The notes under the pieces: model-generated | The model's input: only the letters and a program-made list of their open reading frames with translations | Databases searched by the model: none | What the model was told of the DNA's origin: nothing | Part shown: positions 5,592 to 28,632 of the stretch, in pieces | How positions within the stretch are numbered: the stretch's first letter is position 1 | How the letters are laid out: every line of letters starts with the position of its first letter | Made by a program: the position numbers and the translations under genes | Origin: Candidatus Omnitrophota bacterium | GTDB taxonomy: Bacteria; Omnitrophota; Gorgyraeia; Gygaellales; Profunditerraquicolaceae | Reading direction: 5' to 3' | Length of the DNA: 64,000 bases | NCBI GenBank assembly: GCA_043823435.1 | Contig: JBDRAV010000014.1 | Coordinates: 10,765 to 74,764 of the forward strand

Positions 5592-7937
5592 TTAAATCGT
5601 TGCCCTTGTCAATCCTTTCCGAAAAATTACTAAAAGCAGTAGGCTGCTTAATTTCATGAATATGATTACCATACAGGTATTAAATAGGCCCAGTACCGGT
5701 AAAAGCAAGACACCCCCCACAATGCCTGCGAGCCACCCTCCCATCAGGTCAGAGAAATAAAATAATCCCGAAGTAAGCCCTACGCCGCGATTCTCTTTAA
5801 GATATACTCCGGTAGCGAGCGGGAACTCCAGGCCGATGAATACCCCTGAGACAAAGAATAGCGCGATAAATATGGGCGCGATATATCTCGCTTCGGCGGC
5901 CAGGCCCGTGATCACGGCCGAAGCCAAATATGAAAATATGATCATCGCTATTTCTAATTTGATCAGCAGGTTTATGCTGTTCTTTATATTTCTTAGGCTG
6001 CGCGTCATAAAGAGGCTCCCCACGGCAGTCCCTGCCATGAAGATACTGATGAGGATACCTATCTTATGGTACAGGTAGCCGTAGACCACCTGAAAACTGA
6101 ATATCAGCACAAGGTTAATCATCATGCCGAAGAAACCGGTAGTAGCCACGGCATAAGGAACGCTTAATTTAGCTAAATTGCGCTTACAAGATAAAAACAT
6201 TATCAGGGCAAAAGTCAATACGAGAACTAATACCAATGGAACGACCAAATCAAGGTTCTTCATGGCTCCCAGGACCCCGGCAAAACCCGAAGAGAACTGC
6301 TTATTCCAAATGATGAGCATCTCGTAAACCGCAAAAGGCATAAAGTCGCGGTTCATCTTAGTGGTAGCGCCAAGTGAAGAGCGGTTGAACCATTCCAGGT
6401 GGCTCTTGTTCAACCTGTATTCCAGGTATGCAGGAACGAGTATGCCTGGTTTGATATTCTCACCGCGCATCCTCTGCGTGAGCAATCCGGGGGTAACACT
6501 CATAATCCCCGCTGAGTCAGATGCCAGGAAGATATTATAATCACCCGGGATGACGCGCACATAATTATATGCGCTCTTAAGGCCGTTTAATACGCACGCG
6601 TTTAAATCGCGCAGATCGCAGCTTAAATAAGTCATTGAACCCGGCAGGTAAAGCGCAAGGACGCCGGCCGGATTCATCCTTCCTTTAGCCAAGTCAAAGA
6701 ACTCTTCGGTAAATAGACGGTTACTGGAGAGGTCAGAAGGTTTGGATAGGCCGACCATCATAACGTCATATCTATTCTGCGTACGCTTAAGAAAGAATCT
6801 CCCGTCTTTATTTATTACGTTTACCCTCTTATCGCCAAGTTCCCTCGCGGTCAAGCTGGAAGGGTACTCTTGCAGCATCCTGATAATCAAAGGGTCAAGT
6901 TCCGCGTAATCGAGCCTTTTGACGGGATATTTGAGCATCTCATTTATTAGGCCGCCTGCACCTGCGCCGATAATTAAAACATCCTTTGGCGCGGGATGGA
7001 ATAATAAAGGAAGGTTACCGAACTCCTGCACAAAGACCATATCCGGATAAGGCGTAGTGATCACGGGCAGGCCGTTGTAGAAGAATGTGCGCTCCCCCTC
7101 CTTCTGGACCACGGCGATATTCCCATAAATAGAATTGCGGTAATCAAGGACCTCTTCACCCTTCCATTGTTTTTGGATGGCGTAAGCGCTTATCTTGGAC
7201 GCAGCGCCACTTAAAAACAGGTATGCCGCAAGCAGGAGCACAAAGAATACAAGATATCTGAATACCGTAGATATACGCCTGTAAAAAGGCAGGCATACAA
7301 AGATAATCAATGCGGATATAATGAATGCTATCTGAAAAGAATCCAGGCGCGGTATCAAAAGATAAGTAAGGAGCACTCCGCCTGCGATCGTGCCGATAGT
7401 CTCCCAGGCATAGATCCTTCCTACGCAGTCCGCGGAATCTTTTGCATATGAGGAATATATCTTACAGGAAGCACTGAATAGTGCGCCGTGGCAGAACGCT
7501 ACCGGCAACATTATGAATAAAGAAGAATAGAATATCAATGACAGGGACATCCCCTCTACAAAAGGCACCCCTGCTATAGATTTGACGCACCTGGCCAGGT
7601 AAACGGATAAAGGAAGCACCAAGGCGAATATCACCTGCAGGATAATAAAAATATTTATTTTATTTTTTACCCTGTCAATAACCCTGCCGATGATAAAGAC
7701 TCCGGCGGCCTCTGACATAATCCAGTTGGCAAGGATCAACCCTAGCGAGAGTTCGTTGCCGTAAAAACTCACCAGTAGCTCGCGCAGCAGCACTACCTGC
7801 GCCACTATACCGCTTAAGCCTACCAACAGAACCGTAAAAACAAGAAGAGACTGTCCATGCAAGGTAAAAACAAAAAGGGACTGTCCCCGAAGGGGACTGT
7901 CCCTTTTTATAACGCTCCTCATCCTAAAAAACATCAT
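5592..7937 (-). CDS. fused MFS-like membrane domain / spermidine-synthase-like (class-I Rossmann) protein
   Basis: About 8 N-terminal TM helices, then VLIIGAGAGGLINEMLKYPVKRLDYAELDP (aminopropyltransferase/MTase fold), then further TM helices. Start is uncertain because the first ~25 codons overlap a hairpin/terminator repeat. An in-frame TTG at 7862 is an alternative start. Confidence 0.7.
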   Translation of the reverse strand: MMFFRMRSVIKRDSPLRGQSLFVFTLHGQSLLVFTVLLVGLSGIVAQVVLLRELLVSFYGNELSLGLILANWIMSEAAGVFIIGRVIDRVKNKINIFIILQVIFALVLPLSVYLARCVKSIAGVPFVEGMSLSLIFYSSLFIMLPVAFCHGALFSASCKIYSSYAKDSADCVGRIYAWETIGTIAGGVLLTYLLIPRLDSFQIAFIISALIIFVCLPFYRRISTVFRYLVFFVLLLAAYLFLSGAASKISAYAIQKQWKGEEVLDYRNSIYGNIAVVQKEGERTFFYNGLPVITTPYPDMVFVQEFGNLPLLFHPAPKDVLIIGAGAGGLINEMLKYPVKRLDYAELDPLIIRMLQEYPSSLTARELGDKRVNVINKDGRFFLKRTQNRYDVMMVGLSKPSDLSSNRLFTEEFFDLAKGRMNPAGVLALYLPGSMTYLSCDLRDLNACVLNGLKSAYNYVRVIPGDYNIFLASDSAGIMSVTPGLLTQRMRGENIKPGILVPAYLEYRLNKSHLEWFNRSSLGATTKMNRDFMPFAVYEMLIIWNKQFSSGFAGVLGAMKNLDLVVPLVLVLVLTFALIMFLSCKRNLAKLSVPYAVATTGFFGMMINLVLIFSFQVVYGYLYHKIGILISIFMAGTAVGSLFMTRSLRNIKNSINLLIKLEIAMIIFSYLASAVITGLAAEARYIAPIFIALFFVSGVFIGLEFPLATGVYLKENRGVGLTSGLFYFSDLMGGWLAGIVGGVLLLPVLGLFNTCMVIIFMKLSSLLLLVIFRKGLTRATI
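7834..7886. repeat. 23-bp direct repeat (2 mismatches, 30-bp period) containing the GGACAGTC core
   Basis: gtaaaaacaagaagagactgtcc (7834-7856) versus gtaaaaacaaaaagggactgtcc (7864-7886). Confidence 0.7.
7863..7908 (-). terminator. candidate intrinsic terminator downstream of the Wzy_C gene
   Basis: The minus-strand RNA would be AAAAAGGGACAGUCCCC-UUC-GGGGACAGUCCCUUUUUGUUUUUACC. That is a 17-nt stem with one central mismatch, a 3-nt loop and a U-rich tail. It begins 26 nt after the stop codon at 7934-7936. Confidence 0.5.
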
Positions 7938-9178
7938 TTAGGCGTAACTACTTCTGACTTGATATTGCTCATCGCTGAAACACCCAGGCCGAGCAATATC
8001 CAAAATAAGAGCCCGAGGTCCAGGGAATAGAATATCGTATCCACCCCCATCTGCACACAATAACCCAGCAATGCGGCAAGGCTCGCCAGCAATATATACC
8101 AAGAGAAACTCCTGTTGTTCTTACTGATTATTCTGATACCGCTGTAAAAAAAGAGAGCCGGTATAACTAAAAACGATACCAGGCCTACTGCCCCCATCTC
8201 CGCAAGCATCTGCAGGTAACAATTATGGGCATAGGATGGCCCATATTGGTAAGCCTCTGGCACAAAATCCTTAAAGTTAAACATGAACGTCCCCAGACCC
8301 AGCCCTATCCATGGTCTTACGATAAACATCTTCCACCCTGCCTCCCAGAATATCTTTCTCTCCACGCTTCCGGGGTCTTTGAAGCAAGAGACGTCAAATC
8401 CGACAAAGAAATTGTTTAACCGTTCCTTTATTAGTGCAGGATAAAACGGATGGGTAACCGTTATAAAAAACGCAAGCAGCAAAAAGAATAGACCAAGATG
8501 ATATATCCATAACCCCAAAAATAACGCGGATGCCGCAAATCCATACCACGCCCCCCTTGAAACCGTCATCATCAGGCAGGTAAAAAGAAGAAAAAAAAGC
8601 CCCCCTAACAGTAACCTACCAGTCCTGGAGCGCAATTTAGTAACAAGAAAGGTCACTAAGAATGGCATTACGGCTATAAGATAACAGCCAAAATCATTAG
8701 GCGTAAGGAATGATGCGTAAATGCGCTTGACGAATATGGCTGGGCGGTGACGCAGGAAATCCTTGTGCGTAAAATACTGGTATATTCCGTCTATTCCGAC
8801 TACAGCCGAAGAAAAAAACATGATATAAAGAAAATTCCGGATCTTCTTTTCGCTGTTAAGCGCGTCTATCAGGACGAAAAAGAATAATACATTCTGCACT
8901 ATCTTGCCGTAAAATGTCCTAGCGCTGATCCCGTAATTAACGCTTGTAAAAACCGAGACGAAACATATGCCTAAATAAACAAGTATCGCGGAATTAAGGT
9001 ATGACCTCGGGAGACTTTCTTTGCGCAGGAACATTTTTAACACGTAACATACGATGGCCAAGGTACTGCATATTTCGATAGCGGCCTTGGAAATTGGAAA
9101 AAGAAGCGCCATGCTGTAAAGCGAGAATATAATTATCCTGTCTAAGGTATTAATTAATCTCGTCTTGTCCCAAACCAT
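7934..9178 (-). CDS. O-antigen ligase/polymerase family (Wzy_C domain) polytopic membrane protein
   Basis: 414 aa with at least 10 TM helices. It carries the characteristic loop MMTVSRGAWYGFAASALFLGL. The SD-like GAAGAGGA lies 8 nt before the ATG at 9178. Confidence 0.7.
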   Translation of the reverse strand: MVWDKTRLINTLDRIIIFSLYSMALLFPISKAAIEICSTLAIVCYVLKMFLRKESLPRSYLNSAILVYLGICFVSVFTSVNYGISARTFYGKIVQNVLFFFVLIDALNSEKKIRNFLYIMFFSSAVVGIDGIYQYFTHKDFLRHRPAIFVKRIYASFLTPNDFGCYLIAVMPFLVTFLVTKLRSRTGRLLLGGLFFLLFTCLMMTVSRGAWYGFAASALFLGLWIYHLGLFFLLLAFFITVTHPFYPALIKERLNNFFVGFDVSCFKDPGSVERKIFWEAGWKMFIVRPWIGLGLGTFMFNFKDFVPEAYQYGPSYAHNCYLQMLAEMGAVGLVSFLVIPALFFYSGIRIISKNNRSFSWYILLASLAALLGYCVQMGVDTIFYSLDLGLLFWILLGLGVSAMSNIKSEVVTPK

Positions 9179-10988
9179 CTATTATATCCTCTTCGTCCAA
9201 AATGCCCTTTATTTTTCTGTAAGAGACGCCACAATCGCGGCATATCCTAGTGATATCGTGAAATATCTGCATGCTAATAGAAGGAACTGCGATGATCACC
9301 TCTTCTATATTATGCTCGCGAACAAGCTCCCTGATCGAATCCCTCGCGCCGAGAACAGGTATGCCCTGTATCTTATAGCCTGTCTTTGAAGGGTTATCAT
9401 CTATGAAACCGACCAGATTGTAGTTAAGCGTCTTGTTTCTCTTTATCTCCCTTACCGCCAGTTCACCAGCATCCCCTGCCCCAAATATCAATATGTTCTT
9501 CCCCTCTTTGCGCACGCGGCTGAACAGTTCGCCCAGCACCCTGAACAATATCCTTGAGCCGGCAACGAGAAAAAGCAGAAGAAGCCAGTCTATGAAAAAG
9601 ACCACCCTCGAAAAGCCCTTGAACCTGAATAAGAAGGTGAAGATTATCACGGAAAAAGCAGAAGCCAGAGTAACCGCCTTGAATACGGTGATCAGGTCCG
9701 ATACGCTTATATATTTCCATACCCCGCGGTAAAGCCCCAGCATATAAAAAACTGATATTTTTATCAAGATGAGCCATACGATGGACCTCTCCGCCAACTG
9801 CAGGTTAACCGCTAATATCGGGCTTTCAAAACGCAAGAAATAAGCCGAGTAATACGCAACGCAGATAAACACCAAGTCAAACAAAACCTCCATTATCCTG
9901 CGTTTATATAATAACATATTGTTCAGGATGGTCTTGCTGTTCCTTAACTCCTGCCATTTCTTATAGTCTATAAGTTCATTGTTATAGGAGACCGAATCGG
10001 ATAGAAAAAACCCGAAAAATAACAATATTACGATGGCTAGGAACGCGATGACCGAGATGACAAAGAGGTCTATTCGGGAATACGAAAGCGCGATAATTCC
10101 GAAAGCTATGCTTATGACATAGAGGAGGAATACGGTCTTGCGCGGCGACAACCCCAGGGCTATAAGCCGGTGCGAAGTATGGTCGGTGCCTCCTTCAAAG
10201 ATCTTTTTACCGCTAAGCCTCCTCATGATCATTACGAATATAGTATCGAAGATGGGGACACTCAGGATAAATACGGGGATAAGGATAGTAGCAAAGAGGT
10301 TGGATATATGGCGTCCCGTACCGCTTATTGAGATAACGGCAAGGGAATACCCCAAGAACATACTCCCTGAATCGCCCATAAAGATCTTGGCGGGGTTTAA
10401 ATTATAGGGCAGGAACCCTAATGCGGCTGCGGCCAAAACCAGGCTGAATACCCCAAGCAGATTATTATTGGCGAAAATCAGTGATGAGAAGAATATCATC
10501 AGAGAAGATATGGCGGCGATGCCTGCCGCCAAGCCGTCGATATTGTCGAGGAGATTGAAGGAGTTCGTCACCCCCACTATCCATATCAAAGTCAGTGGTA
10601 TGGTTATACTGTTGCTGACCGGCAGCCCGATTATGGCTCCGAAAGATACGGCGATACAAGCAGCAATGATCTGCAGGAACAATTTAGTGTAAGGCTTGAT
10701 ATGCTTTTTATCATCGATAAGGCCGACGAGGAACAGAAAGGTTGCGCCGAAAAAGAGACCTAGAGTGCTTTTGTTTACGCTACCAATTAAGAAAGCGGAG
10801 ATTATAGAAGCCAAGTATATGCTTATGCCGCCAAGGACTGCAGTAGGGTGCTTATGCCAGCGGTCGGCGCGTGGATATGATACTAGCCCCCTTTTTACCG
10901 CGAACAGCCGCACGGCAGGGGTAAAAATAAGGCTTAAGGTAAAAGATATCAGAAAAATAACTAGATTGTGTATGGTTTGATTTTCCAT
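9150..10988 (-). CDS. polyprenyl-phosphate N-acetylhexosamine-1-phosphate transferase (WecA/MraY family) fused to a WbaP/CapD-type N-terminal membrane + Rossmann module
   Basis: aa 1-~330 carry the PNPT motifs FNLLDNIDGLAAG, FMGDSGSMFLGY and DHTSHRL. aa ~370-612 have 4 TM helices, YRGVWKYISVSDL and ILIFGAGDAGELAVREI..LVGFIDDNP..IQGIPVLG. No dehydratase or PHPT catalytic domain follows. Confidence 0.8.
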   Translation of the reverse strand: MENQTIHNLVIFLISFTLSLIFTPAVRLFAVKRGLVSYPRADRWHKHPTAVLGGISIYLASIISAFLIGSVNKSTLGLFFGATFLFLVGLIDDKKHIKPYTKLFLQIIAACIAVSFGAIIGLPVSNSITIPLTLIWIVGVTNSFNLLDNIDGLAAGIAAISSLMIFFSSLIFANNNLLGVFSLVLAAAALGFLPYNLNPAKIFMGDSGSMFLGYSLAVISISGTGRHISNLFATILIPVFILSVPIFDTIFVMIMRRLSGKKIFEGGTDHTSHRLIALGLSPRKTVFLLYVISIAFGIIALSYSRIDLFVISVIAFLAIVILLFFGFFLSDSVSYNNELIDYKKWQELRNSKTILNNMLLYKRRIMEVLFDLVFICVAYYSAYFLRFESPILAVNLQLAERSIVWLILIKISVFYMLGLYRGVWKYISVSDLITVFKAVTLASAFSVIIFTFLFRFKGFSRVVFFIDWLLLLFLVAGSRILFRVLGELFSRVRKEGKNILIFGAGDAGELAVREIKRNKTLNYNLVGFIDDNPSKTGYKIQGIPVLGARDSIRELVREHNIEEVIIAVPSISMQIFHDITRICRDCGVSYRKIKGILDEEDIIDGLGQDEIN

Positions 10989-11058: not shown

Positions 11059-12258
11059 TTATGGAAGGTTGAGGATGCGGGTGTATAGATCTTCGATATC
11101 CCGGATCAATCTTTCTTTACTAAATCCATCTTTCACAAAATCCCTTGCAGCTTCCCCCATGCTTTTACGCAACGCACTATCCCGCGCTACAAACCCCAGC
11201 GCAGCGGCAAAGGCCTTGGCATCATCAGGCCTGACCATTATTCCCCTTTCCATGATACTGAACCCATAAGAGATACCTTCTTCCCTGCCCGTATCCTGCC
11301 CTAGTAGGTCCCTTACTCCTCCGACATCAGTGGCTACTACGGCTCTTGCCGAAGCCATCGCCTCTATCAATGATACCGGCGTCCCCTCATTCCTAGAGGT
11401 AAGTGCGACTATATCCAGGTCAGAATAGATAACGGGAAGGTCCCTCTGCCATCCTGCCAGCTCCACGTATTTGTCGATACCCAGTTTTCGCGCGCGTTCT
11501 TCCAAATCCCCCCTTAACTCCCCATCACCAATAATCTTGAACCTTGCTCTGATATCCTTGTTGACGGCCATAAATCCGGAGACGGCCTCAAGGAATAACC
11601 GGTGGTTCTTAATCGGCACAATCCTGCCTACGATGCCGACATTCAAGCCAATGTTATCCTTAGGTGGTATCTTTAAGAATCTGTCCAACTCAAAGCCTAA
11701 AGGGATAACCTCTATCTTCCCCTCACCGGCAATGCCAAGTTCCATAAGCTCTTCCCTTACTGAGTCGCTCACGGTTATGATCTTATGGGTGAAACGCGCC
11801 AACAACTTCTCAACAAAGATAAAGATTCTGGTCTGGATCTTATTAAAATATCCTCCAAAGACATGCCCATGAAAGGTGTGTATAATGATAACGCGCTTAC
11901 GCGAAAAACGCCGGAGATTGTAGAATATGGCGGCAAGCCTCCCTAAAGTTCCCGCTTTGGCTGTGTGCGTATGGATTATATCGGGTTCCTGTGAGCGAAT
12001 GATCTTATATATCTTTATGAACGCGGTTATGTCGTTAAAAAGATTAAGTTTGCGCGTAAGTTCCGGGATAAAAACTGGTTTTACCTCCTTGTCGAGCGCG
12101 TAATAAGACATATCCCCTTCATCTTTGGCGACTCTTCCGCAGACGAGGAGTGATTGGAACCCGGATCTGTTCAGTCCTTCGGTAAGAAGGACCGTATGTA
12201 TCGCCGGGCCTCCAATATTGAGGCGGGCGATAACCCTTAATATTTTTATCTTTTTCAT
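11059..12258 (-). CDS. glycosyltransferase, GT-B fold (GT4-like)
   Basis: N-terminus KILRVIARLNIGGPAIH and C-terminal E-x7-E block SRNEGTPVSLIEAMASARAVVATDVGG. Confidence 0.85.
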   Translation of the reverse strand: MKKIKILRVIARLNIGGPAIHTVLLTEGLNRSGFQSLLVCGRVAKDEGDMSYYALDKEVKPVFIPELTRKLNLFNDITAFIKIYKIIRSQEPDIIHTHTAKAGTLGRLAAIFYNLRRFSRKRVIIIHTFHGHVFGGYFNKIQTRIFIFVEKLLARFTHKIITVSDSVREELMELGIAGEGKIEVIPLGFELDRFLKIPPKDNIGLNVGIVGRIVPIKNHRLFLEAVSGFMAVNKDIRARFKIIGDGELRGDLEERARKLGIDKYVELAGWQRDLPVIYSDLDIVALTSRNEGTPVSLIEAMASARAVVATDVGGVRDLLGQDTGREEGISYGFSIMERGIMVRPDDAKAFAAALGFVARDSALRKSMGEAARDFVKDGFSKERLIRDIEDLYTRILNLP

Positions 12259-12295: not shown

Positions 12296-13264
12296 TCAGG
12301 ATTTTGCGCTTTTTAAATATGCTACAATATCCTTAATAATCTCCTTCAGAGTGGAAGTTGGCTTAAAGCCGATCAACCTATTAATCTTGCAGATATCAGG
12401 AACCCTACGCTGCATATCTTCAAAGCCTTCTTCGTAAGCTTTCTCATAGGGAATATACTCTATTGTGGAATTACTTTTGGTGCTCTTGATTATCTCCTCC
12501 GCCAGCTGCTGGATAGTGATCTCTTCCTGGCTACCGATATTGAATACTTCGCCTAAGGCCTTGGGCTCCTTAATGATTTTGGTCAGCGCCGAGACCGCGT
12601 CTTTGACGTGCAAAAAACACCGGGATTGCTTGCCGGTTCCGTATACGGTAATCGGTTCGCTTCTTAATGCCTGTGAAATAAAACGCGGCATAACCATACC
12701 GTAAGAACCTGTCTGGCGCGGCCCTACGGTATTAAAAAGGCGTACTATGATAGCGGGTAATTTCTTTTCCTTCCAGTAAATATAGGCGAGCATCTCGTCA
12801 ACTGCCTTGGCCGTCGAATAACTCCAGCGGCTCTTTAAAGGAGATCCGAGGATCCTGTCGTCGTCTTCTTTAAGCGGTCCGTTGACATTCTTACCGTATA
12901 TTTCGGAGGTAGAGGCAATCAATATCTTGCGCCTGTACCTAAGGGATGATTCCAGGACTATCTCGCTTCCTTTTATATTGGTAGTAAGGGACTCAAGCGG
13001 CTTCTTGACGATCAGGTCCACGCCTACTGCGGCTGCCAGATGAAAAATAGAATCGACCTTTTCAACGAGTTTATCTACGAGGTTGGCATCCAGGATATCC
13101 CCTTCAACGAATGTAAAACTTTTGTCATTTATCAGGTGTTCGACATTCTCGTATCTGCCCGTGGAAAGATTATCCAGGATGATTACCTCGTTATTGGCGG
13201 CAACCAACGCCTCTGTCAAATGCGAACCGATAAAACCTGCGCCTCCGGTGATCAAAAACTTCAT
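12296..13264 (-). CDS. NAD-dependent sugar-nucleotide epimerase/dehydratase (extended SDR; UXS/ArnA-C-like)
   Basis: MKFLITGGAGFIGSHL, STSEIYG, and the catalytic YSTAKAVDE (YxxxK). Confidence 0.85.
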   Translation of the reverse strand: MKFLITGGAGFIGSHLTEALVAANNEVIILDNLSTGRYENVEHLINDKSFTFVEGDILDANLVDKLVEKVDSIFHLAAAVGVDLIVKKPLESLTTNIKGSEIVLESSLRYRRKILIASTSEIYGKNVNGPLKEDDDRILGSPLKSRWSYSTAKAVDEMLAYIYWKEKKLPAIIVRLFNTVGPRQTGSYGMVMPRFISQALRSEPITVYGTGKQSRCFLHVKDAVSALTKIIKEPKALGEVFNIGSQEEITIQQLAEEIIKSTKSNSTIEYIPYEKAYEEGFEDMQRRVPDICKINRLIGFKPTSTLKEIIKDIVAYLKSAKS

Positions 13265-15744: not shown

Positions 15745-17619
15745 TTAGATATAACCTTTCCATTTATAATATATGATACTGAGATATTCATGCAATATGC
15801 CCTTGATCTGCTCTAGATTCACGTCTCGCCACCATTTTATTCCGGAAACATTGGTATCATTACCCGCATAGAAGATGCTTTTTCGCGGGGGGACACGGAT
15901 GACCCGCAGGTCACGCGCGTTCTTCTCAAAGACCAGAGAAGCGCGGCGCATATGATAGGGCGAAGTCACCAGGATTATCTTCTGCCAGCCATTCTGCCTG
16001 AGTATCCTCTCGCTGAAGAGTACGTTCTCATAGGTGTTTTTGGCCTTGTCTTCGATCAGTATTGCCTCAGCCGGCACTCCCAGCGATACTGCCAGGGCTT
16101 TCATCAATAAAGGCTCTTCATATACGTACATATAACCCGAGGAAAAGATGATATGCCTTGCGTACCCTTTTTTATATAATTCTACCGCTCGCTGGACCCG
16201 CTCTTCATAGCCCTGGCCCGCCTTCCCTGATTCTCCCACCCCTCCGGCAAAAACCACTATGCAGTCCGAGCTTTCGGGCGGCTCTGAGATCTTTAAAGGC
16301 CCGGCCGCGACCCAGGCCAAAGGAGTATAAAAAACAATGAAGTAAACAAGTAATACTCCCGCGACGATACGCATTGCCTTTCTTCTCGCGACACGGTAGA
16401 ATTTAAGGAACCGACGCTGCCAGTCAGAGGACTTATTAAACCTCTCCTTCATTGCCTTCACCATAAGTCCGCTCATATCTTCTATGCGCCTCTCCCAATC
16501 ATGCTCTCCGGCTGATATCCTACGCTGCATTATCAATCCTTGATCGCGGTCACCCAGGGCGCTATTGATATGCGCTTCAAACTCCTGATATGTCATCGCT
16601 ATGCGCACCAGGTCATTGTTGATTTTGTTATATTTTATCACCTCCGGCAGATCGATAGAAACAACGGGCTTGCCTAAGGCGTGGTATTCATTTAATTTCG
16701 TAGGGAAGACCGTAGTCGTATATTCGTTTATCTCGTAAGGTATTGTCGCGACGTCAAAATATTTAATGTAGGATGGTAACTCCGAGAACTCCTTCTTTCC
16801 CAGGGAAAATATATTATTCAAACCGCTTATCTTTGAAAGTTCTTCCTGCGCCGGGCCGATCAGCACAAATGACCATTCCGGGTGGTTCTTGGCCAGGTAC
16901 CGGATAAGACCTAGGTCAACGTGCCTATGGATGCCCCCTACATATCCGATTATCGGCTTCTTTATCTTCCTGATATCGGCGGGAGGATCAAGAGAGCTGT
17001 CTTCTTTTTCATCAAAAACCTGGGTATTCACGCCGAAAGGAAAAATATGCACATTATCATTCAAGCGGGAGCACCTCTCCTTCAAGAACTCTCCCTGCGC
17101 GAATATCAGGTCGCACTTCTTTAGCAGCTCATTCTCTGTCTTCTTTATCTTTCTGGGATTATCCGCCAGCACGTAAAAATCGGCGATACAGTAATAAACA
17201 AGCAACCTATGGTCTATATTCGCGATGATATCCAGCGCCGTCCCGGTCGGAAGAAAGGTCCAGATTATCGGCTCATGGAAATCCATCGCCTTCATCCACC
17301 TCTTTAATCCGCCAAGCAACAGGTGGCTGTTTATCCAGCGGGCAATCCGGCTGTAGGGAAAAGGGAGCACAACGGGAGAATAAACATAGAGGTTCTCCAT
17401 CTCTTGCTTGAAGCCCTTTACGCTCCCAAGCCACGCCATAAAACGCTTCTTAAGACGCGGGATATCCTTTAAATGTGGGACCCTTACGCCGGTATTCTCT
17501 ATGAAAAGTACCCTGTTGCCGTTCCTGGCGAATTCAGACATCACCTCCTGATGCCCCTGCCAGTTGAAATCCCAGTCAATGGAAGAGATGCAGATTATAT
17601 TCTGGTTTCGTATGGTCAT
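15745..17619 (-). CDS. GT-B glycosyltransferase (TuaH-like) - TM - DUF218 (YdcF/ElyC/SanA-like) fusion protein
   Basis: N-terminal IICISSIDWDFNWQGHQEVM..NRVLFIEN and a C-terminal GT-B half. A TM helix follows (IVAGVLLVYFIVFYTPLAWVAAG). The DUF218 block is CIVVFAGGVGESG..YARHIIFSSG..NTYENV..ILVTSPYHMRRA. Confidence 0.75.
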   Translation of the reverse strand: MTIRNQNIICISSIDWDFNWQGHQEVMSEFARNGNRVLFIENTGVRVPHLKDIPRLKKRFMAWLGSVKGFKQEMENLYVYSPVVLPFPYSRIARWINSHLLLGGLKRWMKAMDFHEPIIWTFLPTGTALDIIANIDHRLLVYYCIADFYVLADNPRKIKKTENELLKKCDLIFAQGEFLKERCSRLNDNVHIFPFGVNTQVFDEKEDSSLDPPADIRKIKKPIIGYVGGIHRHVDLGLIRYLAKNHPEWSFVLIGPAQEELSKISGLNNIFSLGKKEFSELPSYIKYFDVATIPYEINEYTTTVFPTKLNEYHALGKPVVSIDLPEVIKYNKINNDLVRIAMTYQEFEAHINSALGDRDQGLIMQRRISAGEHDWERRIEDMSGLMVKAMKERFNKSSDWQRRFLKFYRVARRKAMRIVAGVLLVYFIVFYTPLAWVAAGPLKISEPPESSDCIVVFAGGVGESGKAGQGYEERVQRAVELYKKGYARHIIFSSGYMYVYEEPLLMKALAVSLGVPAEAILIEDKAKNTYENVLFSERILRQNGWQKIILVTSPYHMRRASLVFEKNARDLRVIRVPPRKSIFYAGNDTNVSGIKWWRDVNLEQIKGILHEYLSIIYYKWKGYI

Positions 17620-17623
17620 CTTT

Positions 17624-18652
17624 CTATTCTTTCTGTCCTGCCTTATGACTGATCAATCCTTTATCCGAAAGAAAACCTGAGATGGATTCTACGATCCTGC
17701 CGTTCGCGTCCCTATTCGGATGGCTGTCAGAACTGTTGACCCAAAGGTCTTCCGCATTATTCCTCTTAAAAACAGGCAAGAGGTCAAACACGTATGGCTC
17801 TCTTTTAAGCGCCTCTTCTACACGTTCGTGATAAAACCCATAAGGATAACCGCTCTTCAGCTTCTCAAACTTTGGGTAGATCACATAGACTATCGGGATA
17901 CTCTTCTCTTTCGAAAGCGCTTCCAGCTCAGAAAAAGCCTCCTTATTCTTGAGCCAGCCGATATAGCGGTCGGAATAAACATACTGCAGGTTCTCCCTTC
18001 TGATGCCCGGATCATTCGCCGCTAAACCCCTTAAAATATAATTCAATTTATAGAGTTTATCAAGGATAAATTCGTAACTGTATAGCCACCGTAAGATATC
18101 TTTCGCTAAATTAACAAAAGGAGACTTTGAAGTGGTCAAGGGATAATTATATACGCTGTCATTATATACATAACCTATGATAACAAGATCGGGGTCAAGC
18201 TTCAACCCCTCTTCTTTAAGGAATAGGTATTCGCATGCAGTATTATAGCTTGGTATTCCACAATTTATCACTTCTATTGAGTTGCCGAGATACCTTTTCC
18301 GCAAAGATCTCTCCAGTTGTTTCGGATAGGTATCTTCCAGGTCCAGCCCGATATCGAATGTGCAGGAATCCCCAACGGCTAAGATCCTAAAAGTCCCTTT
18401 GGGCTTTAATAGAGAATATTCGTGATCGCGCAAGCCGAATGAATTTATGCGGTATGGACGACCGTATGTCTTCCCGCGAAAACCGGGGCGAAAAGCATAG
18501 CGGCGCGTCTCATGCGAGATATATGTGCCCGGGGTCAAGGGGTGATTTGCATAAAATAGCCTCAAGAAGGCCTCAAGTGCGGCAAAAACAAAGACAGTGC
18601 TTATCGCAATCAGGGTCGTATTCTGCAATAATTTCTTGATTTTTGGCGTCAT
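17624..18652 (-). CDS. membrane-anchored SGNH/GDSL-family hydrolase (paralogue A)
   Basis: N-terminal TM helix, block I FRILAVGDSCTF, block III NCGIPSYN, block V SDSHPN. Confidence 0.7.
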   Translation of the reverse strand: MTPKIKKLLQNTTLIAISTVFVFAALEAFLRLFYANHPLTPGTYISHETRRYAFRPGFRGKTYGRPYRINSFGLRDHEYSLLKPKGTFRILAVGDSCTFDIGLDLEDTYPKQLERSLRKRYLGNSIEVINCGIPSYNTACEYLFLKEEGLKLDPDLVIIGYVYNDSVYNYPLTTSKSPFVNLAKDILRWLYSYEFILDKLYKLNYILRGLAANDPGIRRENLQYVYSDRYIGWLKNKEAFSELEALSKEKSIPIVYVIYPKFEKLKSGYPYGFYHERVEEALKREPYVFDLLPVFKRNNAEDLWVNSSDSHPNRDANGRIVESISGFLSDKGLISHKAGQKE

Positions 18653-20124: not shown

Positions 20125-21180
20125 TTACCTCCGCGTTGTGTTCAGGTACCCTTTCTGATCCAATAAACCGGATAGCGCATACGCTGCAACAGAGAATCCT
20201 TTTTTATTCGGATGTATGATATCGCGTTCTAAATATAAAGATATACCCTGGGAAATATATGGCTTATAAGCTCCACTTAAGTCTATGAAAGGAATATTCT
20301 CCTGCGCGAAAACCCTGCCAAGCCTCTCCTGTATAGAGTAATCGCCCTGTACCAGCTGGCTGTAGAGCGGAAAGACGACAAATACTCCGCACGAGTCATT
20401 CTGCCGCAATAGCTCGTGCGTTTCTTTAAGACACGTTATCCATCTTCCCCACTGGGGCTCTGATATCTCAAACCTGTAGTTCTTAAGATAGTTCTTATAA
20501 CCGTCTCCGATAAAATTCATGCGGTAATAGCTGTTCAGCGCATCGTAAGTAAGCTTATATAACTCGCTCTTCTGGTAGAGCCAGTTGATGAACCTCGCTT
20601 TAGAGCCGTCGCGCATAATAAGATAGACCCGTCCGAGAAAAGTATATACTCTCGGCCTCGTATCTACGAAATCATTCAGGCATATCCCGACTATGACCAG
20701 GTCGGGGCGATACTCGGCTATATTCTCCTTAATAAGCTCATAGACCTGCCGGGAATTATAACCTCCTACTCCGGCATTCCAGACTACAGTTTCCATGCCG
20801 GATTTAGAATAAATCTCTTTTTCCAGCAGGGCTGGAAGTCGCTCCCGCATCGGTAAATAGCTACCTTCAATGATCGAGTCGCCGAAGAAAATTATGCGCA
20901 ATGCCCCTTTATCGACCGTTGATAATTCCGGACCCTCAAAACCTTCGGGATTCAACTTTCTCCTGACCCCAAACTTATTTACGTATTCTATGCCCGGTTT
21001 ATATTCCATGCCCAGCTCTTTATTTGAGCTTGCCCGCATATAGCCGGATGAATTCTTAAATAGAACAAACACCCGACAGGCAAATTCGCCAAAGAGCAAG
21101 AAGACGACGGCGCTTAAGGCAATAAGGATGACAACACGTATATTATTTCTCTTATAATTGCTCTTCAAGAAAGCCTTCAT
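20125..21180 (-). CDS. membrane-anchored SGNH/GDSL-family hydrolase (paralogue B)
   Basis: N-terminal TM helix, LRIIFFGDSIIEG, NAGVGGYN, ERDIIHPN. Confidence 0.7.
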   Translation of the reverse strand: MKAFLKSNYKRNNIRVVILIALSAVVFLLFGEFACRVFVLFKNSSGYMRASSNKELGMEYKPGIEYVNKFGVRRKLNPEGFEGPELSTVDKGALRIIFFGDSIIEGSYLPMRERLPALLEKEIYSKSGMETVVWNAGVGGYNSRQVYELIKENIAEYRPDLVIVGICLNDFVDTRPRVYTFLGRVYLIMRDGSKARFINWLYQKSELYKLTYDALNSYYRMNFIGDGYKNYLKNYRFEISEPQWGRWITCLKETHELLRQNDSCGVFVVFPLYSQLVQGDYSIQERLGRVFAQENIPFIDLSGAYKPYISQGISLYLERDIIHPNKKGFSVAAYALSGLLDQKGYLNTTRR

Positions 21181-22177
21181 CTTTGATCTTCTGGGCGAAA
21201 ATATCGCTTAGCCACTCGTTTCCGGTACTATTAAAGTGCACTTCGTCATTTAAAAGCGTGTTCATCCCTTCCCCTGAAATCAATGTCTGGGTATCGACTA
21301 ACGTAAGGCGGTATTTAGCGGATACCTCTCTTATTATAGCTGTATAATCTTCGACCACCGGCACGAGCCAGGGCGGACACTTTGCCCCGTCTATCAGCTG
21401 CGTTGCCAATATCAACCTCACATTCCCCTCTTGCGAGGCACTGACGAATAATGATAAGTTACGTTTGAACGCGCGGCGCGAAAAAGAAAGATCCGCGTCT
21501 TTTGGAACAGTCTCCCTGCAGCGCGAAAGATATCTCTGTTGCGCCAGAGAATATACCAGCGAGTATAACCTCGAATGCAACAGGAAACGGTTCAGCGGGT
21601 TATGGAGCCTATGAAAATTACGCACTTTCTCAACCGGCTTATCAGCCCTGATTTTCCCCGAAAGATAGGCATCATTTATCGTATGATATACTATGATAAG
21701 ATCCGGAGAAAAGTTTACCGCCTCGTTGATATAACGCGATAGGCTTTCAAAGGTAGTATATCCAGGCCCTGCGGCGTTGATCACTTCTATTTTTTTCTTA
21801 CTGCCTGCCCCCCGCAGCCTTCTTTCCAATAATGCTGGCCAGGTAGAGGAATTATCCTTTTCATATACCCCGAAGGTAGATGATCCGCCGAAACAGATTA
21901 TCCGGAATGTACCTTCGGGCTTTACGGGACCGAAATCATCCCCCCTGTACCCGAGAGAATTTATCCTTATCTCTTTATGGTCCTTGCGGTCTATCCTCGC
22001 CACTGCCCCGGGGCGGAATGAATAATTATAATAGGAATTGGGGATATAGATGAATTCAAGGTTATTATGGGAATAACCGTTGATACCGGCGTAAAGATCG
22101 TATATCCTGACAAATAGTTCGCCACAGATAAAAGTAAAGAGCAAAATAAGGACGGTGTATTTTAACCTTTTAGCCAT
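21152..22177 (-). CDS. membrane-anchored SGNH-family protein (paralogue C; GGS instead of GDS)
   Basis: N-terminal TM helix, FRIICFGGSSTFG, NAAGPGYT, NDEVHFN. Confidence 0.65.
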   Translation of the reverse strand: MAKRLKYTVLILLFTFICGELFVRIYDLYAGINGYSHNNLEFIYIPNSYYNYSFRPGAVARIDRKDHKEIRINSLGYRGDDFGPVKPEGTFRIICFGGSSTFGVYEKDNSSTWPALLERRLRGAGSKKKIEVINAAGPGYTTFESLSRYINEAVNFSPDLIIVYHTINDAYLSGKIRADKPVEKVRNFHRLHNPLNRFLLHSRLYSLVYSLAQQRYLSRCRETVPKDADLSFSRRAFKRNLSLFVSASQEGNVRLILATQLIDGAKCPPWLVPVVEDYTAIIREVSAKYRLTLVDTQTLISGEGMNTLLNDEVHFNSTGNEWLSDIFAQKIKDEGFLEEQL

Positions 22178-23309: not shown

Positions 23310-24172
23310 CTTTCTTCGCGCATACAAAAGAGGTCGGTGTGCCTGCCGTTTGCGATAGTATAATTTTTCAGCAGGCGGGACTCATCGATAAGTCCGAACT
23401 CCTCCTCTTCGTTAGCAAGGTGCATCAGCCTGAATCCCAGCCCTTTAAGCGTATTGAGATAATCTTCGGGCCTCGCCCCAGAATTATTCAACCCTATCGG
23501 CCAGAACTCCGTAACCATCTTGATATCCTTGTTTTTCTCAAGGAGAGAAGGCATGCCGCGCACGGCCAAGAGTTCTGCGCCCTGGATATCCATCTTTATA
23601 AAATCTATCTTGCCTTCAAAATCGCGGAAATAATCGTCAAGCCGCACCGAACCGACCTCTATTACCCTGCGGCGCTCCCCGTAGTCGTATATCCGGTGGT
23701 CTCCGCAATTACGCTTGGAGATATAAAGCTTTATTGGACCGGTCATATCCGATACCGCCTTATTGACAAGCACCACATTCTCAAAACCATTAGCTGAGAC
23801 ATTCTTGCTTAGTAGCGAGAAATTATCCGGGTTAGGCTCGAAAGCAAATACCTTCCCTCCCTTCCCGACCAGCTCCGCAAAAAGCAGGGTATAGTACCCG
23901 ATATTGGCGCCGATATCGACGACCACCTGACCCTCCTTGACGCTGCTCTTCACCAGTTCCGTCTCAAGTGGTTCGCAGGTATCGCTTATGGAGAGGCAAA
24001 GGTTATCTTTCGGGTCAAGGAACATCTTACGCCCCTGCACGATAGCGAAATCCGACTTCAACAGAGAAATTAGCGCGTTATTAATCAGGCGAAAGGGATA
24101 AAACCATGCCAACCCGTAACGGCTCACTGCTTTGGCTATATTCCTGCGTAATGAAAGAAAGTTCCTTCTCAT
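23306..24172 (-). CDS. FkbM-family SAM-dependent methyltransferase
   Basis: VVDIGANIGYYT, VFAFEPNPDNF and KMDIQGAELLAV. Start placed at MRRNFL (24172), which forms an ATGA overlap with the upstream stop. Confidence 0.8.
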   Translation of the reverse strand: MRRNFLSLRRNIAKAVSRYGLAWFYPFRLINNALISLLKSDFAIVQGRKMFLDPKDNLCLSISDTCEPLETELVKSSVKEGQVVVDIGANIGYYTLLFAELVGKGGKVFAFEPNPDNFSLLSKNVSANGFENVVLVNKAVSDMTGPIKLYISKRNCGDHRIYDYGERRRVIEVGSVRLDDYFRDFEGKIDFIKMDIQGAELLAVRGMPSLLEKNKDIKMVTEFWPIGLNNSGARPEDYLNTLKGLGFRLMHLANEEEEFGLIDESRLLKNYTIANGRHTDLFCMREER

Positions 24173-25242
24173 TCTCTTCTGCTTAAACACTCCAGCAGCC
24201 CTGACTCCTTCAGCTCCTTATATATCGCTCTTGCGGCTATCTTGTTACCCAGCGGGTTTGGATGGCAATAATCCATGGGGAAGAACAATCTTTTTTGCTC
24301 CCGAGCGAAATAGGCGGTGAGATCGAGGAACGCTATATTATTATCCGTGCAGTATGTATTTATGATTTCCTGCGGGTCAATAGTGAGCTTGGAAAGGTGG
24401 ATATTAAAATAATTATCCGCGACCTGGAATTCGAAGGGGAATACCACGATAAAAAACTTTATCCCTTTTAAATCAAGGAACCTTTTTATCTTCCCAAGGT
24501 AATCCAGCGTCTCTTCCCACGCTGCCCGAGATTCGGGAGAGATACCGAAGGAAATCATCTCTTCCTTTTCGTTATAGCGGCTGAAGTCATATTTTTTAAA
24601 ACCGTATTTATAAAGAAAACGAGTGGTCTTCACGTCAAAAAAAGATACCAGGGCGCTTTTACGCAATACCCAGCGCATAATGTTGAGCTTATCGCTCAGG
24701 GTCTTATTAAAGGGTATGACCATCCCGGAATAAGAACGGTTGCTGACCTGCGAATGTTTCAGGTCAACCCCCTTACTTTTCGCGTAGTATACGTTGCCTA
24801 CGTCATTAAGGCAGAACCCCAGTATCACCAAGTCCGGGTTTATCCCGTTTATGCTGTTCAGGAGGCCGTAATATTCTATGCTGGTGCCTACCCCGGAAGT
24901 CATGATCAGCCCGCAGTTTATCACCTGATAGACCTTATTCTCGTCCTTATTGAGCATCTTCTCTAGTTGTTTCGAATAGGTATCGCTAAGCTTGTTCTGG
25001 CATCCGAAGGTGACCGAATCACCCAGGGCCATTATCCTTATCGCTCCTTGTTCCTTGCGGCTCTCGAACTCGTAGTCACGTAAGCCCCTTGAATTAAGCG
25101 TAAAAGGTATCCCACCCGTAATCCCCTTGCCGTGGTCAAGGGATTTATAGGCGGGAAGGAAAACTCGGACCATCATCTCAAGCGCCAGGAAAATTATTGC
25201 AAAAACCGCGATATCCTTTAAAACGCGCATAATCTTCATCAT
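24169..25242 (-). CDS. membrane-anchored SGNH/GDSL-family hydrolase (paralogue D)
   Basis: N-terminal TM helix, IRIMALGDSVTFG, NCGLIMTSG, MDYCHPN. Confidence 0.7.
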   Translation of the reverse strand: MMKIMRVLKDIAVFAIIFLALEMMVRVFLPAYKSLDHGKGITGGIPFTLNSRGLRDYEFESRKEQGAIRIMALGDSVTFGCQNKLSDTYSKQLEKMLNKDENKVYQVINCGLIMTSGVGTSIEYYGLLNSINGINPDLVILGFCLNDVGNVYYAKSKGVDLKHSQVSNRSYSGMVIPFNKTLSDKLNIMRWVLRKSALVSFFDVKTTRFLYKYGFKKYDFSRYNEKEEMISFGISPESRAAWEETLDYLGKIKRFLDLKGIKFFIVVFPFEFQVADNYFNIHLSKLTIDPQEIINTYCTDNNIAFLDLTAYFAREQKRLFFPMDYCHPNPLGNKIAARAIYKELKESGLLECLSRRE

Positions 25243-26751: not shown

Positions 26752-28632
26752 CTAATCCATGAATTTACGGTGCCATAGCTCAAACATCAACAGGGACCAG
26801 AGCCTGTAAGAATGTTCCTGCTTTGAATCAATATGGTTCTTTATCATATCCTCCACAAAGGCCTGGTTAAAATACCCTCTTCTGCACGACTCAGGGGAAA
26901 GTAGTATATCGCACACGAATTCGCGTAGCCCCCCCCTTAACCATCCGGATACGGGGACGCCGAACCCCATCTTCCTGCGGTTTATATTCTCAGGAGGCAA
27001 TATCCCTTTAAGGGCTTTTTTGAGGATATATTTAAGCGTTGAGCCTTTTATCTTGTATTCCGCAGGCAGGCGCGCAACGAACTCCGCGAGCTTATAATCC
27101 AAGAATGGTGAACGCAGCTCCAGCGAATTAGCCATACTGGCGATATCGGCTTTTACCAAAAGGTCGTTCGGAAGATATGCCGATATATCCATGCTGAGCA
27201 GCGTATCCAGCGTAAGCCCGTATGGCCCGGGCTGGATGCCGCGGCCCCGGCCTAAAGCGCCTTCCTCTTTCATCCTCTCGGAGAATAATGCACTTTTCTG
27301 AACATCTGTAAATATACTCATCCAGTTAAGGTAGCGCTCTATAAAAGGAAGCTCTATCCCGGATACGAACTTCTTAAGGCGCTTCAAAGGATTTTTCGGC
27401 TCTTCTTCGGCCGGAAGCATATTAGTCAGAAAACCGAGCGACTTTCTGGCCAAAGCAGGGATACTTTTTAATTTCTCGGCGAGGAGCATAGCCGCGTATC
27501 TTTCATAGCCACCGAACGATTCATCCCCCCCGTCTCCGTTCAGGGCAACCGTCACGTACTGCCTGCTTAGCCTGGAAACATAATATGTAGGTATGCACGA
27601 AGAGTCGGCGTAAGGCTCACCGTAATGCTCCGCTAACTTCGGGAGTAATTCAACCTCGTCAGGTTTCACGGTAAACTCGGTATGCTCTGTCCGGTAGCGC
27701 GCGGCAACTATTCTTGCGTGCGATAATTCGTTATAAACGGATTCTTCAAACCCGATGCTGAAGGTCTTTACTTTGCCAGTGTTAAGTTCCGACATTAGGG
27801 CAACGATGGCACTTGAGTCTATCCCGCCGCTCAGGAAAGCGCCGAGCGGCACGTCGCTGTACAAACGCTTACGCACCGCATCTTTCAATAACCTTAACAC
27901 CTCCTCTTTCGCCTCTTCTTCCGTAATACGGTTCTTCGGTGCATAATCAAGGCACCAGTATGGTTCATGCTTCAGGTTCCCGCCCTTAAGCACGCAAAGA
28001 TGCGCAGGCATGACTTTAAAAACATGCTTATATATGGTAAGGGGCGCTGAGATATAACCAAAAGTAAAATATTCCCTTAAAGCCCCGTAATCTATCTCTT
28101 TCTTAATAAAACCACATTCCAATAGCGCGCTGAATTCGGACGCAAAACAGAACCTTCCTCCCTGATGATAATAGAGGAGCGGCTTCTTACCGAAACGGTC
28201 CCGCGCAAGGAGTAGCATCTTCTTCCTTTCGTCCCATATGGCAAAGGCGAACATCCCGTCCAGCTCTTTCACGCAATCAATGCCGTGATCTTCGTAAAGA
28301 TGCAGGATGGTTTCCGTATCGGTATTCGACTTGAACCTGTGGCCTTTTTCTTCAAGCCCTATCCGCAACTCCTTATAGTTATATATCTCTCCGTTGAGGA
28401 TCACCTGTATCGTGCCATCCTCATTTGACATAGGTTGATGTCCGGCGTCCGACAGGTCTATGATACTCAGGCGCCTGTGCCCTAAACCGGCATATGGCGC
28501 CGCGGAGTCACTTAAATATATGCCTTCATCGTCAGGACCCCTGTGTTTTAAACGGGAGCACATCCGCCGCAAGGCCTCATCGCCTATCTTCCCTTGTGAA
28601 TTATAATCGATTATTCCGCAGATTCCGCACAT
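26752..28632 (-). CDS. asparagine synthase (glutamine-hydrolysing) family amidotransferase
   Basis: N-terminal nucleophile MCGICGI, a GATase-II domain and the PP-loop LSGGIDSSAIVALM. 626 aa. Confidence 0.9.
   Translation of the reverse strand: MCGICGIIDYNSQGKIGDEALRRMCSRLKHRGPDDEGIYLSDSAAPYAGLGHRRLSIIDLSDAGHQPMSNEDGTIQVILNGEIYNYKELRIGLEEKGHRFKSNTDTETILHLYEDHGIDCVKELDGMFAFAIWDERKKMLLLARDRFGKKPLLYYHQGGRFCFASEFSALLECGFIKKEIDYGALREYFTFGYISAPLTIYKHVFKVMPAHLCVLKGGNLKHEPYWCLDYAPKNRITEEEAKEEVLRLLKDAVRKRLYSDVPLGAFLSGGIDSSAIVALMSELNTGKVKTFSIGFEESVYNELSHARIVAARYRTEHTEFTVKPDEVELLPKLAEHYGEPYADSSCIPTYYVSRLSRQYVTVALNGDGGDESFGGYERYAAMLLAEKLKSIPALARKSLGFLTNMLPAEEEPKNPLKRLKKFVSGIELPFIERYLNWMSIFTDVQKSALFSERMKEEGALGRGRGIQPGPYGLTLDTLLSMDISAYLPNDLLVKADIASMANSLELRSPFLDYKLAEFVARLPAEYKIKGSTLKYILKKALKGILPPENINRRKMGFGVPVSGWLRGGLREFVCDILLSPESCRRGYFNQAFVEDMIKNHIDSKQEHSYRLWSLLMFELWHRKFMD

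Follow-up and report, generated by a model that had tools for sequence, protein, structure and literature searches.

A polytopic transferase and its accessory module

The gene considered here lies on the minus strand, at 9150..10988 (stop codon included), of a 64-kb stretch of contig JBDRAV010000014.1 from a Candidatus Omnitrophota bacterium, which as a whole we call the window. It is a single uninterrupted reading frame of 612 codons and encodes a bi-domain protein, in which a polytopic phosphoglycosyl transferase (PGT) is followed by a module of four transmembrane (TM) helices and a Rossmann-like domain. An earlier note on the window had read the first part as a catalytic domain of the WecA/MraY type, that is a polyprenyl-phosphate N-acetylaminosugar-1-phosphate transferase (PNPT), and the second as an accessory module that stands after rather than before a catalytic domain and lacks the catalytic domain of both the WbaP-type transferases and the dehydratases. 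This reading is borne out. In Pfam, Glycos_transf_4 (PF00953) covers residues 76-223 with 124.9 bits (cut-off 27; E 3.9e-36) and CoA_binding_3 (PF13727) covers residues 430-590 with 72.2 bits (cut-off 25; E 7e-20); PglD_N and CoA_binding also match residues 497-573, more weakly. Among the NCBIfam models, the WecA model TIGR02380 aligns to residues 9-328, and residues 369-594 align with an E-value of 6e-29 to positions 1-222 of TIGR03025, a large-PGT model that is 445 positions long. Neither Bac_transf (PF02397), which would mark a large monotopic PGT, nor Polysacc_synt_2, which would mark a dehydratase of the PglF/CapD/WbpM type, has a Pfam match in the 612 residues. Hydropathy and the full-length AlphaFold2 model (mean predicted local distance difference test, pLDDT, 73) agree on eleven TM helices, then four more, and then a beta/alpha domain.

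The catalytic half, residues 1-330 (9999..10988, minus strand, as are all the features of the protein given below), has the fold and the signatures of a PNPT. Its eleven TM helices are the WecA-type count, which puts the C-terminus of the domain in the cytoplasm. The cytoplasmic Asp-Asp motif D92-D93 (10710..10715) is invariant in 72 representatives of the family, as are N142, N145, D148, D151 and G152 of the NxxNxxDxxDG signature NSFNLLDNIDG (N142-G152, 10533..10565). In the MGDSGS motif (M204-S209, 10362..10379) G205 and G208 are invariant and D206 is kept in at least 90% of the representatives, and in the His-rich cytoplasmic loop DHTSHR (D269-R274, 10167..10184), the sugar-nucleotide recognition region of WecA-type enzymes, D269, H270, H273 and R274 are invariant. 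The motifs that the earlier note had quoted for this half are all present, with NLLDNIDGLAAG at residues 145-156, MGDSGSMFLGY at 204-214 and HTSHRL at 270-275. A Foldseek search with the N-terminal half of the model finds MraY (E 2.7e-11, target TM-score 0.72) and DPAGT1 (TM-score about 0.6-0.66), with target-normalised scores from 0.6 to 0.76 overall. With the catalytic motifs intact, the protein should be a functional polytopic PGT. It is a member of the PNPT superfamily but is not assignable to WecA proper, and the sugar specificity cannot be assigned since the scores are far below the equivalog cut-offs of both WecA (108.5 bits against 326 for TIGR02380) and MraY (63 bits against 192).

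A variable basic linker, predicted to be cytoplasmic, forms the joint of the fusion (residues 331-362, 9903..9998) and is poorly defined in the model, with a pLDDT below 50 at residues 330-356. The module follows directly. Its four-helix bundle (residues 363-485, 9534..9902, with the YRGVWKY segment at 420-426) is seen in the hydropathy profile, in the AlphaFold2 model and in the Foldseek match to WbaP (8t53), and its helices are placed at 363-386, 390-416, 429-454 and 461-491. The cytosolic Rossmann-like domain, which corresponds to the domain of unknown function (DUF) of the large PGTs, takes up residues 486-598 (9195..9533), with the beta/alpha fold itself at about residues 497-592, and the protein ends about 15 residues past the last strand. 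Within this domain there is a glycine-rich, putative nucleotide-binding loop, GAGDAG (G503-G508, 9465..9482), in which G503 is invariant and A504 and G508 are kept in at least 90% of the 72 representatives, and a GFIDD segment (G527-D531, 9396..9410) that places acidic residues at the end of strand beta-2, the ribose-binding position of Rossmann folds; both D530 and D531 are conserved in at least 90%. The C-terminal motifs quoted earlier are likewise found, at 420-432 (YRGVWKYISVSDL), 503-508 (GAGDAG), 525-533 (LVGFIDDNP) and 540-547 (IQGIPVLG). The last 14 residues and the stop codon (residues 599-612, 9150..9194) form a variable tail, within which the next gene already begins.

Structure comparison, which the earlier note had suggested for the module, gives matches to both of the expected kinds of protein. 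For the full-length model's C-terminal half, Foldseek finds Salmonella enterica WbaP (8t53, over 247 columns) and 3nkl, which is the N-domain, by itself, of a WbpM-type protein from Vibrio. With a model of the module by itself the top match is 3nkl (TM-score 0.73, root mean square deviation 1.6 A, 28% identity), then the NADH-sensing Rex repressors, and then WbaP; between the two models, 8t53 is matched over 201-247 columns. The TM bundle of the module-only model is poor (pLDDT 50-60, below that of the full-length model) while its Rossmann part is trustworthy (pLDDT 82-90). The known topologies of PNPTs and of the accessory module require the PNPT active-site loops and the Rossmann domain to be in the cytoplasm. 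Both are predicted to be there, as the Lys/Arg-rich loops fall on the predicted cytoplasmic side.

The protein is not a one-off hybrid. An identical protein is in NCBI, from a metagenome-assembled genome of Candidatus Omnitrophota, as the "hypothetical protein" ABH806_02535. Beyond it there are 119 further clusters (90% clustering) at 60-81% identity with the same two Pfam domains, so the fusion cannot be put down to misassembly or a frameshift, and a HMMER search of 1.84 billion representatives (50% clustering) adds at least 150 relatives at 33-60% identity, nearly all of them aligned in one full-length stretch. The taxa found in a scan of GTDB species genomes are at least Omnitrophota, Acidobacteriota, Desulfobacterota, Actinomycetota (Gaiellaceae), Bacillota (Heliomicrobium), Salinivenus and Fibrobacterales; Fibrobacterota is also among the phyla with members of the family, and the named database matches add Nitrospirae and a Patescibacteria-labelled genome. 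In their sources the relatives are labelled "hypothetical" or plain "GlcNAc-1-P transferase" (GlcNAc, N-acetylglucosamine), and the architecture described here corrects the annotation of thousands of environmental proteins with such labels. Some relatives vary at the C-terminal end: one (P0167) has an unrelated helical extension of about 330 residues, and another (P0223, 1110 aa) has two CoA_binding_3 stretches. In the literature a full-text search found no description of a polytopic PGT with PF13727 or fused to a PglF-type dehydratase, with many subscription-journal papers outside its scope, so that an earlier description is possible, and a PNPT with this module is likewise absent from the two PGT papers of most relevance. 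We therefore regard the protein as a case of known parts in an apparently undescribed but widespread arrangement with an informative evolutionary history; as such it is no great surprise, given how common the shuffling of domains is.

Probable origin of the module and proposed decay of the dehydratase

The earlier note framed the protein as a joining of two normally separate initiation systems, the PNPTs and the polyprenyl-phosphate hexose-1-phosphate transferases (PHPTs) to which WbaP belongs. If the module did come from a large monotopic PGT of the WbaP/WcaJ type, the protein would be a true chimera of both superfamilies of initiating transferases. The points in favor of this are that residues 369-594 match positions 1-222 of TIGR03025, TIGR03023 and TIGR03022 at 65-102 bits and that Foldseek finds WbaP. 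The match to the large-PGT ("EPS_sugtrans") models is uninformative on the origin, though, because in a control search genuine WbpM/PglF-like dehydratases match positions 2-245 of the same model at 73-84 bits, and we rejected it as evidence for a PHPT origin for this reason. Direct comparisons favor the dehydratase modules throughout. When residues 355-612 were compared by tblastn to 72,556 annotated plasmids, the top matches were annotated as "nucleoside-diphosphate sugar epimerase/dehydratase" (76-122 bits, E-values down to 3e-29) and annotated large PGTs reached only 53-71 bits. A hidden Markov model (HMM) of the family module scores dehydratase N-modules at 119-226 bits, which is within the range of divergent family members left out of the building of the HMM, compared to 83-109 bits for large PGTs. 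A profile search of the PDB gives 3nkl an E-value of 2.9e-9 over 87 residues and WbaP one of about 9e-4 over 169 residues. In addition, the relatives with a further domain after the module have Polysacc_synt_2 or a remnant of it, and never Bac_transf. The module is thus markedly closer to the dehydratase type, and we consider the two-superfamily chimera very improbable.

The relatives also suggest how such a module could have come to stand behind a PNPT. In at least four genomes of the GTDB scan a separate PNPT gene of 340-359 codons lies directly before, and in the same direction as, a gene for a dehydratase that consists of the module and a short-chain dehydrogenase/reductase (SDR) domain. 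These are the cultured Ampullimonas aquatilis (L023), two other Pseudomonadota and one Desulfobulbaceae metagenome-assembled genome (L030, L041 and L080), and Pseudomonas aeruginosa wbpL-wbpM (L085) has the same order of PNPT and dehydratase. There are also rare relatives with three domains, Glycos_transf_4, CoA_binding_3 and Polysacc_synt_2 (P0122, P0124, P0128, P0223 and P0271-P0275; loci L087, L088 and L089), in which the entire dehydratase is joined to the transferase.

The SDR domains of these three-domain relatives are colinear with PglF/WbpM and appear to be in decay. The diagnostic catalytic residues of PglF/WbpM are TDK...Mx3K (PMC8987622). All seven reference dehydratases have the corresponding S-T-D-K and M-G-x-[ST]-K. 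In the three-domain relatives the triad is mutated (STSK, SSIK, SIEK, SSMK, SSTK, SSRR and others), the Met of Mx3K is lost in all of them, and its Lys is replaced by Arg in seven of the nine. A further stage could be represented by forms of about 930 residues (P0158, P0277, P0278 and P0319), in which an eroded SDR-like extension has deletions, has lost the NAD glycine motif and has no Pfam SDR match. In a tree on 586 columns of the PNPT and the module, three-domain forms fall in at least two separate places among the bi-domain ones, where P0223 and the bi-domain P0191 form a pair with 96% bootstrap support, as do P0122 and P0124 with 81%. At 27 bi-domain loci no PglF-type SDR was found within 6 kb of the fusion gene. 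As a side observation, the three-domain proteins have strong Polysacc_synt_2 matches despite their mutated catalytic residues, and automatic annotation would label as active enzymes what are probably pseudo-dehydratases.

From this series we propose four steps. A PNPT gene would have been located directly upstream of the gene of a membrane-anchored dehydratase; the two genes would have fused to encode a three-domain protein; the active site of the dehydratase would have been inactivated and its domain eroded; and finally the loss of that domain would have left the PNPT with the module alone. The unusual position of the module after the catalytic domain could then be explained because it was once the N-terminus of the downstream dehydratase. 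The direction that we infer is well supported by the intermediates, and an origin of the module in a PglF/CapD/WbpM-type dehydratase by such fusion and decay is most likely.

Several observations weigh against this scheme or limit it. In a neighbor-joining tree of the module alone the deep nodes are weakly bootstrapped and there are just two large-PGT outgroups, so that monophyly of the module with the dehydratase modules is unproven by phylogeny alone, and the argument for the origin rests on the scores, the intermediates and the decay series rather than on the tree. A tblastn search for more large-PGT outgroups with the N-module of a Thermomicrobium large PGT returned only that protein itself. 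The PNPT half is closer to stand-alone WecA/TagO-like enzymes of Bacillota and Chloroflexota (up to 226 bits) than to the dehydratase-adjacent proteobacterial PNPTs (63-111 bits; 30% identity to WbpL). The sampled adjacent pairs should therefore be taken as analogues that illustrate the ancestral state and not as ancestors, and direct descent from proteobacterial wbpL-wbpM pairs is unsupported. Finally, one 816-residue relative (P0280) has an SDR of the Epimerase/GDP_Man_Dehyd type fused instead, and because this is a different, Epimerase-type SDR, secondary gains of SDR domains also occur, which is a caveat on the decay series.

It could also be argued that the module is a functionless leftover of the decayed fusion, or even that the reading frame artificially joins two genes. 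Since the dehydratase domains of the relatives are clearly decaying, decay of the module could be expected to come next. The conservation pattern speaks against this. We averaged the identity to the window protein by region, for the close family at 60-81% identity and for a deep set. The means for the close family and the deep set are 0.69 and 0.40 in the PNPT domain, 0.66 and 0.36 in the four-helix bundle, 0.64 and 0.34 in the Rossmann domain, but 0.38 and 0.14 in the linker and 0.20 and 0.06 in the tail. The module is therefore conserved to almost the same degree as the catalytic domain in over 150 cluster representatives from many phyla, while linker and tail drift. Conservation in the module is highest in the glycine loop (G503-A504-x-x-x-G508) and at D530-D531, the two acidic residues that follow beta-2; these are the classic nucleotide-ribose contacts. 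In the membrane part, Y420, W424 and R479 are strongly conserved as well. The reading frame is continuous here and in all the relatives. Neither of the observations by which the earlier note would have been refuted is thus made, be it a C-terminal half that has no significant match to CoA_binding_3 or CapD N-terminal models or a stop near residue 340 that separates two genes. A leftover or an artefact is hardly credible in view of these data. By its conservation pattern the module is still functional, and as this strong constraint was kept while the attached dehydratase domain decayed, the module would now be serving the transferase.

Possible role of the module and its gene neighborhood

The reaction proposed for the protein is the transfer of a sugar-1-phosphate from a UDP-sugar to polyprenyl phosphate with release of uridine monophosphate (UMP), which would start the Wzx/Wzy-type glycan of the surrounding gene cluster. 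UMP is the product of both PGT superfamilies. The module would putatively hold the enzyme as a dimer and bind a uridine nucleotide such as UMP, and in this way give feedback control of the first committed step. The model for this is WbaP. There the dimer interface is for the most part made by the same module, UMP, UDP and UTP out of 20 nucleotides screened stabilise the DUF on its own, and the enzyme is inhibited by UMP, with a half-maximal inhibitory concentration of 4.1 uM (PMC10942596). Dodge et al. (2024, eLife) proposed a general role for the module in product feedback, as a UMP-sensing and dimerising unit, and noted the same module in PglF-like dehydratases, where they found the sharing "puzzling" (PMC10942596). 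Because the WbaP module dimerises and senses uridine nucleotides, and because polytopic PGTs also release UMP, the module here could well do the same for a PNPT. The earlier note had suggested a regulatory, nucleotide-binding or scaffold role. This was reasonable. The glycine loop and the acidic pair are conserved, and the putative ligand, the dimer and the regulatory effect are drawn by analogy with WbaP. Taken by itself, we would put a role in nucleotide sensing and dimerisation at somewhat under an even chance. As a combined explanation, a module derived from a dehydratase and kept by the PGT, for which it may dimerise the enzyme and sense UMP, is the best that we have and is rather probable.

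There are three points that count against this role. In its dimer, WbaP makes use of a beta-hairpin behind the DUF that has no obvious counterpart in the AlphaFold2 model of our protein, and the dimer contact may differ for this reason. The resemblance of the Rossmann domain to the NADH-sensing Rex means that the ligand could be another nucleotide. Also, the module of WbpM has been described simply as a membrane anchor that is dispensable for catalysis (PMC8987622). The second of these points can be taken further, to a sensor of a dinucleotide such as NAD(H), as in Rex, or of some other metabolite, which would couple the initiation of the glycan to the redox or energy state of the cell. Rex-family proteins are among the top matches both in sequence and in structure, and binding of NAD(H) or adenosine typically goes with a canonical GxGxxG loop and an acidic residue that follows beta-2. 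The closest structure is nevertheless 3nkl, a dehydratase-type protein and not Rex, and the only experimental data for the module family, those for the WbaP DUF, show stabilisation by UMP, UDP and UTP (PMC10942596). A sensor of this kind seems improbable to us.

The co-directional glycan cluster to which the fusion gene belongs spans more than 20 kb, with this gene at its downstream end, and includes a Wzx-like flippase, several glycosyltransferases of family 4 (GT4s), methyltransferases, GDSL-type enzymes, an AsnB-like amidotransferase and a GFO/hexapeptide fusion. Its product is the only initiating transferase found in the 64-kb window, and no second copy of the module, other PNPT or PglF-type SDR was found there. 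Immediately upstream are a GT4 glycosyltransferase (11059..12258, minus strand), which is a recurrent neighbor, and a soluble extended SDR of 322 residues with the motif STSEIYG...YSTAK (12296..13264, minus strand), which is a conserved companion. Downstream is a Wzy_C gene (O-antigen ligase/polymerase-like, also IctB-like; 7934..9178, minus strand), which starts 29 nt before the fusion gene ends and has the Shine-Dalgarno-like site GAAGAGGA ahead of its ATG. The overlap behind this site suggests that the translation of the two genes is coupled.

The module could also be mainly a membrane scaffold, which would dock the Wzy_C protein, the SDR or the GT4, or assemble a metabolon with the PGT at its center, with no sensing of nucleotides. 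At many of 25 loci, which come from several phyla, there is again a cassette with a GT4 and an SDR of about 320 residues upstream and Wzy_C downstream, and the overlap of the Wzy_C start with the end of the fusion gene fits as well. So does the fact that the four-helix part is as conserved as the Rossmann part, and the N-region of WbpM has been described as an anchor for membrane targeting (PMC8987622). On the other hand, Wzy_C is just downstream of the fusion in only 6 of the 45 flanking open reading frames (ORFs) scanned at the 25 loci, even if several of these are in other phyla. In addition, a pure scaffold would have no need of a ligand site, and the near-invariant GxGxxG loop and the acidic pair indicate that one has been kept. 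We regard the scaffold as unlikely, although with a better chance than the dinucleotide sensor.

The fusion family has a value beyond this one protein. The module is found on three unrelated catalytic scaffolds, the monotopic PGTs, the SDR dehydratases and now the polytopic PGTs, and the family amounts to a natural deletion experiment in which the dehydratase domain decayed and the module stayed under selection. Because the module outlasted the decayed dehydratase, its role would not be tied to dehydratase chemistry or to the mere anchoring of a soluble enzyme. This bears on the open question of why WbaP-type transferases and PglF-type dehydratases share the module, and provides a test bed for it on a WecA-type enzyme. 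More tentatively, the four helices and the Rossmann domain may be an autonomous cassette that can move between enzymes and that controls the first committed steps of bacterial glycan assembly, and which outlived the dehydratase by giving a polytopic PGT feedback by UMP, regulation through a dimer, or both. If this were true, one regulatory logic would span both PGT superfamilies, and the present family would be the cleanest natural system in which to dissect it.

The companion SDR is better conserved than the fusion protein, with 49-56% identity across Omnitrophota, Bacillota, Acidobacteriota and Desulfobacterota compared to 35-44%, and similar SDRs of about 320 residues (STSE[IV]YG...YxxxK) are also at L001:1599-2567, L009:4791-5819, L004:171-1214, L065:4861-5844 and other loci. 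Its motif fits GMD-like 4,6-dehydratases or UXS/ArnA-like decarboxylases without separating them. We considered whether it is a replacement of the lost dehydratase. This is unsupported, as the three-domain loci also carry such an SDR, at 31-33% identity, and the STSE...YxxxK motif cannot separate dehydratases from decarboxylases.

The rest of the window has some further features. Nearly all ORFs of at least 150 residues in 1-64000 are on the minus strand and the GC skew is negative in every 2-kb bin, so the window amounts in effect to a single array of co-directional genes; its GC content dips sharply at 46-52 kb and at 62-64 kb. Downstream of the Wzy_C gene and overlapping it is the gene of a 781-residue protein (5592-7937, minus strand) with a spermine/spermidine-synthase-like domain at residues 307-430 and no Pfam match in the rest. 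Within the cluster, 15745-17619 (minus strand) encodes a 624-residue fusion of a GT4-type domain (Glycos_transf_1) and a C-terminal DUF218. Four paralogous GDSL-like lipase/acylhydrolase ORFs of about 340-357 residues (17624-18652, 20125-21180, 21152-22177 and 24169-25242, minus strand) are located among methyltransferases and may be sugar O-acyl-modifying enzymes. The GFO/hexapeptide fusion (28636-30216, minus strand; 526 aa) combines a GFO/IDH/MocA oxidoreductase with a hexapeptide-repeat acyltransferase and resembles a WbpB-WbpD-type pair for the formation of a 3-amino sugar; it adjoins the AsnB-like amidotransferase (26752-28632). Farther away are a type I phosphodiesterase of 591 residues overlapping a 612-residue protein with a PAP2 phosphatase domain (41304-44833, minus strand), and a 685-residue protein resembling sulfatases and lipoteichoic acid synthases (53448-55505, minus strand). 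These are large membrane or secreted enzymes that act on phosphate or sulfate esters, and may have a part in the recycling of lipid-linked glycan or polyprenyl phosphate.

Comparison with known systems

Compared to the WecA-type and MraY enzymes, residues 1-330 have the same fold, the same WecA-like topology of eleven TM helices and the same DD, NxxNxxDxxDG, MGDxGS and DHxxHR motifs. What the window protein adds, relative to the E. coli WecA model, P. aeruginosa WbpL, MraY and DPAGT1, is the 280-residue C-terminal part with four helices and a Rossmann domain.

The closest relative of residues 363-598 is the module of the UDP-GlcNAc 4,6-dehydratases PglF, CapD (Cap5D) and WbpM, which consist of the four helices, CoA_binding_3 and Polysacc_synt_2. 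The three-domain relatives contain the whole of this architecture, in the order of PNPT and then dehydratase that the genes have in wbpL-wbpM. Unlike these dehydratases, the window protein is without the SDR domain, and its module is C-terminal to a different catalytic domain that is embedded in the membrane.

The large monotopic PGTs WbaP, WcaJ and CpsE (cryo-electron microscopy structure 8T53) have the same kind of four-helix and DUF module (PF13727), catalyse the same reaction and release UMP, and they are the only experimentally studied example of the function of the module (PMC10942596). Their catalytic domain, however, has a monotopic fold with a re-entrant helix that is unrelated to the polytopic PNPTs, the module is N-terminal there and C-terminal here, and the similarity in sequence is weaker than to the modules of the dehydratases. 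A last comparison can be made with the Bi-PGTs, which are fusions of monotopic PGTs (PMC10942596). In both cases an initiating PGT is fused to pathway enzymes or accessory domains, but here the PGT is a polytopic one.

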